Origin: a virus
Taxonomy: Duplodnaviria > Caudoviricetes
IMG/VR virus record: IMGVR_UViG_642973577_000001
Span: 100,603 to 164,602 of that record
Direction: 5' to 3' (one strand)
Length of the DNA stretch: 64,000 nt
Shown here: positions 21,096 through 56,569 of the stretch, piece after piece
Numbering within the stretch: position 1 is the stretch's first letter
Layout: each line of letters begins with the position of its first letter
Position numbers and translations under genes: made by a program
The notes under the pieces: model-generated
Seen by the model: the letters and a program-made list of their open reading frames with translations, nothing else
What the model was told of the DNA's origin: nothing
The model's database searches: none

Positions 21096-21840
21096 CAAGA
21101 ACAAGACCCTGATCGCCGCCCTGCTGGACCGCAGCGGCTCCATGCGCTCCCGCGCTCGCTCGACCGAGGAGGGCTTCAACGAGCTGATCCACGGCCAGAA
21201 GAACGAGCCGGGGCAGGCCTACGTGACGCTGGCGCAGTTCGACGACCAGTACGAGGTCGTCTACGCCAACAAGCCGATCGCCGAGGTGCCGCCGCTGTCG
21301 CTGGTGGCCCGCTCGATGACGGCCCTCAACGACGGCATCGGCAAGCTGGTGACCGACGTCGGCGCGGAGCTGGCCGCACTCAAGGAGGACGAGCGCCCCG
21401 GCCTGGTCATCTGCGTGATCATGACCGACGGCATGGAGAACGCCTCCCGCGAGTGGACCGCGCAGGCCGTCAAGGACCTGATCAAGGAGCAGGAGACCAA
21501 GTACGGCTGGAAGTTCATCTTCCTCGGCTCGGGCATCGACGTGCAGCAGGAGGGCGTGGCCCTGCGCGGCTTCGGCGCGCAGCGGTCGATGGCGTTCGAC
21601 GCCGATGCTCCGGTGGCCGTGGCTGCGGCCTACAGCGCCACCAGCAACCTCATCGGGTCCTACCGGGGCATGGCGGCGGCTGGCGCAGCGCCGGAGGCCA
21701 TGGACGCCGTGGGCTACACCGACGAGGACCGCGCCGCCGCGATGGCCAAGCAGCCTCCGGGCCGTAAGGAGGGCGAGAGCCAGGCCGACTGGAAGTCGCG
21801 CCTGCAGTCGCGGGGGATGGTCGACAGCTCGTCGCGGTAA
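21088..21840 (+). CDS. von Willebrand factor A domain protein
   Basis: MIDAS DRSGSM, TALNDG, MTDGMENAS, WKFIFLG. Confidence 0.9.
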   Translation: MTDKNKTLIAALLDRSGSMRSRARSTEEGFNELIHGQKNEPGQAYVTLAQFDDQYEVVYANKPIAEVPPLSLVARSMTALNDGIGKLVTDVGAELAALKEDERPGLVICVIMTDGMENASREWTAQAVKDLIKEQETKYGWKFIFLGSGIDVQQEGVALRGFGAQRSMAFDADAPVAVAAAYSATSNLIGSYRGMAAAGAAPEAMDAVGYTDEDRAAAMAKQPPGRKEGESQADWKSRLQSRGMVDSSSR

Positions 21841-21844
21841 CCCC

Positions 21845-21875
21845 TTGACCGGGAGACCCCGGAGTGTGCTACAGT
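21845..21875 (+). promoter_or_regulatory. SigA-type promoter for the leader/tRNA transcript
   Basis: TTGACC, 19-nt spacer, TGn-TACAGT extended -10; ATG follows after a 7-nt spacer. Confidence 0.7.
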
Positions 21876-21882
21876 CGTCCTC

Positions 21883-21915
21883 ATGCGTACCAACCGCCTG
21901 AATCGACAGCAGTAG
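21883..21915 (+). CDS. putative leaderless leader peptide MRTNRLNRQQ
   Basis: ATG at the predicted +1; codons ATG CGT ACC AAC CGC CTG AAT CGA CAG CAG TAG. Confidence 0.55.
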   Translation: MRTNRLNRQQ

Positions 21916-21940
21916 CCCTCCGGGGTCTACTGCGTCTTCT
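21909..21940 (+). terminator. terminator/attenuator-like hairpin
   Basis: GCAGTAG-CCC-TCCG-GGG-T-CTACTGC with a cUNCGg tetraloop, followed by GTCTTCT. Confidence 0.55.
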
Positions 21941-21942
21941 AG

Positions 21943-22013
21943 TGCCTGTTGGTGTAATGGCAACACGCCGGTTTCTGACACCGGTATTCTTGGTTCGAGT
22001 CCAGGGCGGGCAG
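21943..22013 (+). tRNA. tRNA-Gln(CTG)
   Basis: Acceptor TGCCTGT/GCGGGCA, anticodon arm CCGGT-TTCTGAC-ACCGG, T loop TTCGAGT; CCA not encoded. Confidence 0.93.
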
Positions 22014-22033
22014 CTCTTCCCCTAGCGGGATGA

Positions 22034-22107
22034 TGGTCACTAGCTCAATTAGGCAGAGCAACGCCCTGTTAAGGCGTCAGGTGAAGGTTCGAGTCCTTCG
22101 TGGCCAG
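22034..22107 (+). tRNA. tRNA-Asn(GTT)
   Basis: Acceptor TGGTCAC/GTGGCCA, anticodon arm ACGCC-CTGTTAA-GGCGT, T arm GAAGG-TTCGAGT-CCTTC; CCA not encoded. Confidence 0.93.
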
Positions 22108-22561
22108 CTTGAAAACCTGTTCGCGCTGCAAAGTCGAGAAGCCCAGGTCTGAGTTCCACAGGTGGAGCAAGGCCAAGGACGGGCTGAATCATCACTGCAA
22201 GGACTGCGTGAGCGACAAGGCCAAGGCTCGGTATCGGCGTAGCCCGGAGTGGCGCGCCAAGCTCGTCGAGAACGCCATCGAGCGCCGCAAGAAGCTCCAG
22301 CAGTACGCTTTCACGTATCTGACCGAGCACCCGTGCGTCGATTGTGGTGAGACTGATCCGATCGTCCTGGAGTTCGATCACGTGCGTGGTGAGAAGGTTC
22401 GAGCCATCTCGTCGATGCTCGGAAACGGCGGCTCCCTGGACCGACTCAAGGAGGAGATCGCCAAGTGCGACGTCCGGTGCGCTAACTGCCACGCTCGCGT
22501 GACGGCCCGCAGAAACGGGCGGTATTGGAAGCTGGCGTTTATCCCTGTAGTATCTGTATAG
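22100..22561 (+). CDS. HNH endonuclease with N-terminal zinc ribbon
   Basis: KTCSRC...CKDC; CVDCG...LEFDH...CANCH. Confidence 0.88.
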   Translation: MASLKTCSRCKVEKPRSEFHRWSKAKDGLNHHCKDCVSDKAKARYRRSPEWRAKLVENAIERRKKLQQYAFTYLTEHPCVDCGETDPIVLEFDHVRGEKVRAISSMLGNGGSLDRLKEEIAKCDVRCANCHARVTARRNGRYWKLAFIPVVSV

Positions 22562-22599
22562 TCTGTTTGTTCCACCCACCCACATTCAGGAGGCATCCC

Positions 22600-23064
22600 G
22601 TGCCATATACCGATCAGTACGTGGACCACGTGTTCTCGTACCACGCACCTCGCGAGGGGCAGCCGGAGGTCTACGAGACCATCCGTACCCACGCCAAGGC
22701 GTTCTTCCAGGTCATCAACCGGCTCGTGCCCGACGGCGCGGACAAGGCCGACGCGCTGCGCTCGCTGCGCAACTGCGTCATGACCGCCAACGCCGGAGTC
22801 GCCCTCGCGGGCGGACCCGAGGCGTTCATGGTCAAGACCGCCGACGTCGCCGCCGTCGCACGGCGCGCCAAGGACGTCGAGGCAGCGGCCACCCGGTCGC
22901 CGTACCAGACCACGCTGGGCTTCAAGGCCCAGGGCGGCGAGTACGAGGTCTCGATCGACCCGACCGCCAAGCGCGACGACGGCTACACCGAGGTCAAGAA
23001 GGTCGACACCGGCAAGCCGATCGCTTCCCTGGCCGACGACTACCTCCGGGCCAAGGGCCTGTGA
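22600..23064 (+). CDS. Acb2/Tad1-hairpin-like protein with C-terminal extension
   Basis: FSYHAP..GQ...YE.IR..AK......P....K..AL..L...VM.ANA; AGGAGG SD. Confidence 0.65.
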   Translation: MPYTDQYVDHVFSYHAPREGQPEVYETIRTHAKAFFQVINRLVPDGADKADALRSLRNCVMTANAGVALAGGPEAFMVKTADVAAVARRAKDVEAAATRSPYQTTLGFKAQGGEYEVSIDPTAKRDDGYTEVKKVDTGKPIASLADDYLRAKGL

Positions 23065-32412: not shown

Positions 32413-32493
32413 GTCTCTAGAACAAAAAGGCCCTCTGACCGGGTGTGATATACTGGTGCCGCACCAGTTCTACCCACCCACCCAGGAGGCACC

Positions 32494-56271: not shown

Positions 56272-56561
56272 TGGCTCGCCGTGACGCAGTGCCTGACGAG
56301 ATCTTCCAGGTGGTCGAGCTGGTCAATGGCAAGCCTCAGGGCGAGGTCGTGGCGGCTCCTGACTTCGATCGTGGCCTGCGCAAGCCGATCGACTACAACA
56401 CCAAGGTGCGGCTGTACGTCCACGGGCCGACCGCCCTGGCGTACAAGAACCGGCTGGAGAAGGAGGGTCGCAAGGTCCGCATCCGCCGGTTCGTCTTCGC
56501 CGAGGACTTCTACGAGACTGATGTGGTTCGGCTTGACCAGAAACCTGTAGAGGAGTTATAG
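56271..56561 (+). CDS. hypothetical protein
   Basis: TGATG coupling. Confidence 0.75.
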
Positions 56562-56569
56562 TAACTTTT

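Follow-up and report, generated by a model that had tools for sequence, protein, structure and literature searches.

Organization of the tRNA-Gln/tRNA-Asn locus

The 64,000-nucleotide stretch of viral DNA analyzed here (the window) corresponds to positions 100603-164602 of a phage genome 164,602 bp long. It contains a pair of tRNA genes, tRNA-Gln(CUG) and tRNA-Asn(GUU), preceded by a compact leader made up of a promoter-like sequence, a very short open reading frame (ORF) and an RNA hairpin (Table 1). This leader, a putative ribosome-read control element for the tRNA genes behind it, and its counterparts at the other tRNA blocks of the genome are the subject of this work. Coordinates refer to the window unless marked as genome coordinates.

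The stop codon of the upstream gene (21838-21840) lies 4 nt 5′ of the -35-like hexamer, which is separated by a 19-nt spacer from an extended -10 sequence; an ATG at 21883 follows after 7 nt. It opens the frame ATG CGT ACC AAC CGC CTG AAT CGA CAG CAG TAG, encoding MRTNRLNRQQ, and there is no Shine-Dalgarno (SD) sequence 5′ of it. A generic sigma-70 scan called no promoter at the element, the 19-nt spacer being the cause.

The end of the frame is embedded in a predicted hairpin. Its 5′ arm (21909-21918) begins with the final base of Gln codon 9, runs through Gln codon 10 and the stop codon and takes in three further bases; a UCCG loop (21919-21922) and the 3′ arm (21923-21933) follow. In the predicted minimum free energy fold additional GAC:GUC and GAA:UUC pairs extend the structure to codons 7-8 and into the tail. 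The leader fold has an energy of -24.2 kcal/mol (z = -3.37), and none of 200 shuffled sequences was equally stable. Counting the ATG as +1, the hairpin occupies +27 to +51 and tRNA-Gln begins at +61.

An initial annotation of this DNA had listed the promoter, an ATG behind it, the 10-codon ORF, the UCCG hairpin, the pyrimidine tail and the two tRNAs, and each of these was confirmed in the sequence; reading of both tRNAs likewise bore out the presence of U1 and A72. Its further statement that the ORF contains exactly the codons of the two downstream tRNAs is true for four of nine codons (Asn and Gln) and does not apply to the three Arg, the Thr and the Leu codons. Among stop-free shuffled sequences, an Asn/Gln content of 4/9 was reached by 553 of 156,286 after mononucleotide and by 140 of 36,278 after dinucleotide shuffling (p ~3.5e-3). 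Across 143 long ORFs of the genome, the Asn codon AAT accounts for only 0.20% of codons. The CAG CAG pair adjoins or enters the 5′ arm of the hairpin, which places two consecutive candidate sensor codons at a duplex that a ribosome could block.

Table 1. Features of the tRNA-Gln/tRNA-Asn leader and of the start-stop unit of the same genome
Feature	Position	Strand	Comment
-35-like hexamer TTGACC	21845-21850	+	alignment A4: T[T/G/A]GAC in 9/9 sequences
Extended -10, TGC-TACAGT	21867-21875	+	identical in 9/9 aligned relatives
Predicted leaderless 10-codon ORF and TAG	21883-21915	+	ATG 7 nt past the -10 is the predicted +1
AAT CGA CAG CAG (Asn-Arg-Gln-Gln), candidate sensor codons	21901-21912	+	unchanged in every aligned relative
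Hairpin, 10 bp and one bulged U, UCCG loop	21909-21933	+	predicted fold
Pyrimidine-rich tail GTCTTCTAG, 9 nt	21934-21942	+	between hairpin and tRNA-Gln; no U-tract
tRNA-Gln(CUG)	21943-22014	+	ARAGORN; Rfam RF00005, 49.8 bits
tRNA-Asn(GUU)	22034-22108	+	ARAGORN; Rfam RF00005, 62.2 bits
Start-stop Pth2 unit	genome 33014-33600 (L003:1015-1600); Phabba L010:2133-2710; Cali L018:8852-9651		

Leaders of the same type precede every tRNA block

ARAGORN detected 36 tRNAs in the genome, located in three places: at 32.4-33.6 kb, at 91.8-96.5 kb and in the Gln/Asn pair. Rfam added one weak tRNA between tRNA-Pro and tRNA-Tyr (29.1 bits, gathering score 29), which is a tRNA-Trp in the record of Mycobacterium phage Phabba. 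A type-II tRNA-Ser(cga) at genome 32563-32646 (L003:564-647) was found only with a relaxed ARAGORN threshold and is missed both by default ARAGORN and at the Rfam gathering score; in related records it is labelled tRNA-OTHER or tRNA-Leu.

The sequence TGCTACAGT occurs in three exact copies in the whole genome, all of them preceding tRNA blocks, and a copy with one mismatch, TGCTACGGT, precedes the main tRNA array. On the genome + strand, ATG or GTG stands exactly 7 nt behind a -10 at eight sites, four of which are at the heads of tRNA blocks. When a distance of 6-7 nt is considered, a start codon follows a -10 of the same type at the head of every tRNA block of the genome. Every leader also has a stable hairpin 3-14 nt from the first tRNA, with loops of the UNCG type (UCCG, UACG, UUCG), and by reading the leaders are C-rich and G-poor. 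Besides AAT, they contain several codons that are rare in the phage genes, namely AGT (0.21%), TTG (0.74%), CTA (0.15%), CTT (0.24%) and TCA (0.20%). The leaders thus appear to be built to a common plan, in which a start codon at about +1 comes after the promoter and opens a run of codons for the downstream tRNAs; the stop codon lies within a stable hairpin or adjoins it, and 3-14 nt separate the hairpin from the first tRNA.

The comparison proposed in the initial annotation, namely whether leader codons vary together with the tRNA set, gave a positive answer: there are four promoter-led blocks, each with a matched leaderless ORF of its own. For convenience the leaders of the Ser/Leu block (genome 32398), of the main array (genome 91663) and of the Gln/Asn pair are referred to as leaders 1, 2 and 3.

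Leader 1 reads ATG TTC GCA CTC CTG AGT TTG TCA TCC TCC CTA CGA CTT TCG TAG (MFALLSLSSSLRLS) and directly precedes tRNA-Ser(gct), Ser(cga), Leu(cag), Leu(gag) and Leu(caa). Of its 13 codons, ten specify Ser or Leu; as many were reached in 67 of 151,321 shuffles that keep mononucleotide and in 16 of 34,404 that keep dinucleotide composition (p ~4.5e-4). Moreover, none of the five tRNAs is without a cognate codon in it (P ~4e-4 under genome codon usage).

The alleles of leader 1 in related genomes (Table 2) were informative. Lukilu, and likewise Tonenili, differs from this genome by GCA>GCT, TCA>TCC, TCC>TCA, TCC>TCG and TCG>AGC, all of them synonymous, and the last crosses between the two families of Ser codons. 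One codon was gained and one lost, both in frame. The Lukilu leader still has codons for all five tRNAs (CTG, AGY, TTG, TCG, CTY), at shifted positions; in Tonenili GTT stands in place of the Lukilu CTT. In our genome the Ser-codon tract UCAUCCUCC (genome 32419-32427) can form 9 bp with tRNA-Ser along its 5′ acceptor strand (32466-32474). In the unconstrained fold this pairing displaces the acceptor stem, and masking of the first 30 nt brings the cloverleaf back. As a general mechanism this pairing was rejected, being lost in Lukilu and Tonenili. Its destruction in Lukilu also means that RNA pairing does not explain the synonymous pattern, which points to selection on leader 1 at the level of codons.

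Leader 2 (VFTIADTTTRGTLMRAAYRPWHIKH) has 25 codons and stands at the head of an array of 30 tRNAs; 23 of its 24 non-start codons specify amino acids carried by tRNAs of the array. Its frame is kept in Phabba, ScoobyDoobyDoo and the contig L069, with one deletion in frame and a shifted stop codon, and the changes among relatives are mostly non-synonymous. In Cali the block behind leader 2 consists only of Pro, Trp and Tyr tRNAs. There leader 2 reads MFEIRPPEPRWRYQPSLGR, with Pro, Trp or Tyr in 6 of 18 codons (binomial 0.010), which suggests co-variation of the leader with its own transcription unit. Leader 2 of our genome can form mutually exclusive pairings and a terminator-like hairpin. As general evidence for a switch this was set aside: the U-tract is lost in Phabba and ScoobyDoobyDoo, and L069 has one hairpin in place of the structure.

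The fourth promoter of this type (Table 1) is followed by GTG TAG, in frame with a gene for Pth2 peptidyl-tRNA hydrolase (PF01981, E = 9.7e-9) that starts at the next GTG. Two tRNA-like genes follow Pth2, the second with a CUA anticodon in an enlarged loop (~9 nt). The corresponding sequences are GTG TAG GTG ACA in Phabba and, behind a diverged promoter, ATG TAG GTG ACA in Cali. Synthesis of Pth2 from the leaderless start might depend on read-through of UAG by the tRNA with the CUA anticodon.

Two further observations concern leaders 1 and 2. Their second codon is Phe (TTC or TTT) in most alleles, as it is in the L026 allele of leader 3, and a Phe second codon may be a preferred 5′ context for leaderless initiation. 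DNA palindromes were seen by eye to flank the -10 of leaders 1 and 2; they are absent in Phabba and Cali.

Conservation of the Gln/Asn leader

Among the named members of the phage collection, Phabba (genus Myrnavirus, Ceeclamvirinae) is the closest, with 81.5% identity over 510 nt. In the 96 nt at 21838-21933 the window and Phabba differ at only two positions, both in the -35/spacer part, compared with a mean identity of 82% over the whole alignment. The flanking gene and tRNA-Asn have diverged from those of Phabba, and the anticodon stem of tRNA-Gln has compensatory changes. This contrast indicates strong purifying selection on the 96-nt leader region.

Leader 3 was then compared in the eleven related genomes of cluster-C-type mycobacteriophages listed with its alleles in Table 2. 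All eleven have an ATG 6-7 nt past the -10, a frame that is open for 9, 10 or 11 codons and ends in NRQQ and a stop codon, and the hairpin; the conservation anticipated for the leader was thus found, with the frame open throughout. Differences in leader length among relatives are whole codons, and the CGT/CGC change is synonymous. The tract AAT CGA CAG CAG TAG and the stem are unchanged across relatives, and so is TGCTACAGT. In the Bixzunavirus allele five of ten codons are Asn or Gln, and of the 204 records that hold this version, 202 reach 95% identity or more over 91 nt. With respect to the hairpin, all 80 cells of the pairing table (10 pairs in 8 distinct sequences) are paired; nine of the ten pairs are invariant, and variation is confined to one internal position and to the loop (UCCG, UACG or UCUG). 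The tail is different in every lineage.

Table 2. Alleles of leaders 3 and 1
Leader	Allele	Genomes
3	MRTNRLNRQQ	window, Phabba
3	MRTNVNRQQ	ScoobyDoobyDoo
3	MFTTAMNRQQ	L026 (167-kb IMG/VR contig)
3	MRTSSQQNRQQ	seven Bixzunavirus genomes: Cali, Norm, Catera, McWolfish, Sebata, Tonenili, Lukilu
1	MFALLSLSSSLRLS	this genome, Phabba
1	MFARLSLSSSLRLS	Cali, Kashi_SSH1, Catera
1	MFTRLSLSSSLRLS	L040
1	MFAFRLSLSSSLLS	Lukilu
1	MIAFRLSLSSSLVS	Tonenili

Viral contigs were also scanned with patterns. For leader 3 there were 12 loci, four with the leader and tRNA-Gln/Asn and eight chance matches, and for leader 1 nine loci, four with leader 1 and five by chance. A 15-nt pattern gave 92 stretches, nearly all apparently chance matches, of which L069 alone was examined.

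Within the promoter spacer of leader 3 there is an inverted repeat, CCGGG-AGAC-CCCGG (21851-21864). The potential to pair is kept with changed bases in Phabba, ScoobyDoobyDoo and L026, and the Bixzunavirus genomes have a longer repeat, GAGCCCCGG...CCGGGGCTC, extending across the -35. This repeat could be an operator or the terminator of the upstream gene.

Neighboring genes and a second motif

An ORF of 153 aa with CxxC and His-rich motifs (22100-22561, +) starts within the 3′ end of tRNA-Asn. It gave no match in a Pfam search and is absent from Phabba, where the tRNA is directly followed by a CCTGTAG motif. By its Cys/His pattern alone the ORF gives an HNH impression, and it has the look of an inserted gene for a homing-type nuclease; the main tRNA array is likewise split by a similar ORF (genome 92036-92380). 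The Acb2/Tad1 hairpin domain (PF24729, E = 2.9e-12) is matched by the gene that follows the tRNA pair (22600-23064, +).

The motif CCTGTAG-N5-10-TA(T/G)A(G/A)T is present five times on the genome + strand (window 22544-22562 and 56544-56562; genome 21109, 32962 and 130476), and its strict form has two matches in the window, where 0.01 would be expected. Behind three of the copies lie a CCACCCACCCACA-type 5′ untranslated region and an SD sequence, and one copy lies after each of the two smaller tRNA blocks. The motif is probably a second, phage-specific class of promoter.

A possible gauge of decoding capacity

The leaders could be explained as cis-acting, ribosome-read gauges of decoding capacity that are matched in codons to the tRNAs behind them and tune phage tRNA output. 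We give this explanation about an even chance. One component of it, that the short frames are read by ribosomes and have been selected for their codon content, is likely from the comparisons above; that they regulate tRNA output is a further step which we infer.

In the case of leader 3, a host-type promoter would start the transcript at or beside the ATG, as suggested by the constant 6-7 nt from the -10, and a 70S ribosome would translate the leaderless frame of 9-11 codons, in agreement with its conservation. The final four sense codons are Asn-Arg-Gln-Gln, and the Asn and Gln tRNAs are encoded just downstream. A ribosome slowed at AAU or at either CAG would occupy the 5′ arm and hold the hairpin open; by the established geometry of ribosome footprints, an A site at Gln codon 9 or 10 means that the entire 5′ arm is covered. 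A ribosome finishing fast would let the hairpin form, and the folded hairpin would lower the yield of mature tRNA. Tentatively, then, tRNA output would rise when decoding of Gln and Asn is slow, and this sign of the response could be the opposite one. The same design at the other tRNA blocks would provide four independent controls of supply and demand.

The step at which output would be affected is constrained by the surroundings of the hairpin. Neither an ORF nor an SD sequence lies behind it, and a duplex hiding an SD is thus not present; the downstream genes are tRNAs with no ribosome-binding site, so that the step would have to be transcriptional or to act in processing or stability. Candidates are a polymerase pause or weak NusG-aided termination, Rho acting on the C-rich leader, and hindered 5′ processing by RNase P. 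According to the abstract of a preprint, translated regions and premature termination shaped by Rho go together in M. tuberculosis (10.1101/2022.06.01.494293), which makes a Rho-based output plausible.

Extending this reading to all four units, cluster-C-type mycobacteriophages (Ceeclamvirinae) might possess a four-member "tRNA-supply ribulon", in which each promoter-led block is autoregulated by a mini-ORF of its own codons (Ser/Leu; Pro/Trp/Tyr or the whole array; Asn/Gln) and the start-UAG makes Pth2 depend on the CUA-anticodon tRNA. The time that ribosomes dwell on these codons would then set the output of the tRNA genes, with no protein regulator and no classical terminator or antiterminator. 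This wider proposal we rate at somewhat below an even chance.

The initial annotation had interpreted leader 3 as an attenuator. The part of that interpretation which stands is that the leaders are matched in codons and keep their frames; the hairpin is not a canonical terminator, there is no antiterminator, and compensatory changes are lacking. As a generic scan gave no terminator-like match at the site, the label of intrinsic-terminator attenuator was dropped. The tie to host anticodon nucleases or GatCAB is purely speculative, its sole basis being U1-A72 in both tRNAs, and nothing connects the element with defence.

A number of observations weigh against the gauge. Several concern the hairpin as a switch. 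The tail GUCUUCUAG has four U in 9 nt, varies between lineages and is not the U-tract of a terminator, no conserved U-tract is present in the hairpins of these leaders, and mycobacterial RNA polymerase reportedly requires a U-tract. When the first 21-42 nt were masked in folds of leader 3, the hairpin was lost, the tRNA cloverleaf remained intact and no antiterminator helix appeared. The kinetics would be tight: the 3′ arm is made by +51, at about the time the first 70S ribosome loads, so that a polymerase pause would be needed. The spacer of the promoter, at 19 nt, exceeds the consensus length, and the upstream stop codon lies so close to the -35 with no terminator between them that read-through transcripts would escape control. 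No RNA run among the public sequencing runs searched contained the element, and the best DNA run contained 0.25 of the words. Apart from these points, and with respect to known RNA families, all 31 Rfam matches at the gathering score in L002-L004 are tRNAs, with no leader family; at E <= 1 the region 21780-22160 gave the two tRNAs and a sub-threshold YrlA at 21987-22059, at the tRNA-Gln/Asn junction downstream of the leader, and no T-box.

Other points concern the codons. Five of the nine codons of leader 3 (those for Arg, Thr and Leu) belong to tRNAs of the other clusters of the phage, four of the ten Ser/Leu codons of leader 1 (TCA, TCC, TCC, CTA) have no phage tRNA, and the match of leader 2 is weak evidence because the array covers ~80% of codon usage. 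The N-terminal half of the leader 3 peptide is not conserved (RTNRL, RTNV, RTSSQQ, FTTAM). None of the ten hairpin pairs shows a compensatory change among the eight distinct sequences, which is uninformative for or against the hairpin itself; the invariant AAT CGA CAG CAG TAG may therefore be kept for RNA structure or for a protein that recognizes it, and, with leader 3 taken by itself, codon meaning and RNA structure are inseparable as the cause of conservation.

Finally, the design was absent from all five of the other actinophage tRNA regions examined. By eye, no convincing codon-matched leaderless ORF was present in the tRNA regions of Rhodococcus CosmicSans, Arthrobacter Yeezus and Gordonia Nebulosus, and a pattern scan of Mycobacterium phages Estes and WXIN gave no convincing leader (Estes has two pattern matches, and the tRNAs next to them are not matched).

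Alternative explanations

The simplest alternative is a plain promoter with a structured 5′ leader, the hairpin of which serves processing, stability or insulation of the pre-tRNA (as part of an RNase P substrate or as a block to a 5′ exonuclease). The frame would be incidental, since mycobacterial transcripts often begin with RUG, and a 10-codon ORF is open by chance fairly often. The hairpin that every leader has at 3-14 nt from its first tRNA, the stable UNCG-type loops, the lack of both terminator and antiterminator and the fact that the invariant part of leader 3 is the stem all agree with this. It leaves unexplained why each of four independent leaders is spelled in amino acids that its own tRNAs carry, why leader 1 alters its Ser codons only synonymously while the RNA pairing is lost, and why all length changes are in frame with a start codon always 6-7 nt past the -10. 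For these reasons we consider it unlikely.

Alternatively, the ORFs might be translated and selected and yet not be sensors of supply. They could shield the transcript from Rho, aid tRNA folding or act like the bar minigenes of phage lambda, which release peptidyl-tRNA, at a cost offset by the phage Pth2 and tRNAs. The Pth2 gene (PF01981) behind a start-stop mini-ORF in a tRNA region would fit the last of these, the C-rich, G-poor composition the first, and the restoration of the tRNA-Ser cloverleaf on masking the first 30 nt of leader 1 the second. General shielding or help in folding needs no codons matched to the downstream tRNAs, though; the pairing of leader 1 with the tRNA is not kept in Lukilu and Tonenili, and leader 3 has no alternative pairing. 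On balance this group of explanations seems improbable to us. That the ORFs encode functional micropeptides unrelated to tRNAs is the most doubtful by far: the frames are kept and a section of leader 1 is maintained as amino acids, but the four peptides have nothing in common, leader 3 tolerates free replacement of its N-terminal half, leader 2 changes mostly non-synonymously, and composition follows the tRNAs with no peptide motif.

Significance and comparison with known systems

Why phages carry tRNA genes and how these are controlled is an open question, for which compensation of codon usage, replacement of tRNAs destroyed by nucleases and translation of late genes have been proposed. If the gauge described above is real, the phage would sense how much decoding capacity there is and provide tRNAs as they are needed, and leader-peptide attenuation would extend from operons for amino acids and synthetases to tRNA genes themselves. 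The idea can be tested, as Phabba, ScoobyDoobyDoo, Cali, Catera and ~200 other relatives are cultured phages of M. smegmatis mc2 155, a strain with an established biology of leaderless translation. Four differently spelled leaders in a single genome are built-in controls, and the start-UAG-Pth2 unit offers a simple read-out of suppressor tRNA activity.

Classical ribosome-mediated attenuators include trpL, hisL, leuL, pheL, thrL, ilvL and the pheST leader. As in these, a 5′ short ORF of the phage is rich in codons linked to the product, and the position of the ribosome is proposed to govern a downstream hairpin; the mixed leader 2 resembles the multivalent ilvL and thrL leaders. The phage element differs from them in that its targets are tRNAs and not enzymes or synthetases, its start is leaderless, it has 9-11 codons with the stop inside the hairpin, and it lacks both a U-tract terminator and an antiterminator. 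In pyrBI-type attenuation a closely following ribosome prevents the terminator hairpin from forming. The direct occlusion of a single hairpin by the ribosome, with no antiterminator, is what we propose here as well, whereas pyrBI senses UTP-dependent pausing of the polymerase and has a true U-tract terminator. The T-box binds tRNA directly and controls synthetase and amino-acid genes; it is similar in being cis RNA control keyed to the status of one tRNA, but the phage element has no Rfam match to it.

In a full-text literature search, to which subscription papers and supplements were out of reach, no description was found of control of tRNA genes by a leader peptide or short ORF, either in phages or in cells. 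A term search within PMC10865867 likewise gave none. The auxiliary tRNA operon of Anabaena is induced when translation is impaired and, in the available portions of the reports, is under the control of a transcriptional repressor (PMC8421152, PMC10272220). It resembles the phage arrays as an extra set of tRNAs, and as described there differs in being cellular and repressor-controlled, with no mention of a leader peptide.

As far as the available part of the report describes it, the nearest experimentally shown relative of the phage element is the "Cys ribulon" of M. smegmatis, in which leaderless polycysteine short ORFs act as ribosome-stalling attenuators and the stalled ribosome blocks a duplex in which the following gene's ribosome-binding site is hidden (Canestrari et al., bioRxiv 10.1101/834739). 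The phage hairpin precedes tRNAs with no ribosome-binding site and so differs from the SD sequestration in that account. Both systems, on the same partial description, share the host genus, consecutive sensor codons and a duplex that a ribosome can block. In the Cys ribulon the short ORF starts at the transcription start site and several loci are coordinated by one tRNA pool, and the phage leaders, with a leaderless start predicted from the geometry of the promoter, may be likened to it in these respects.

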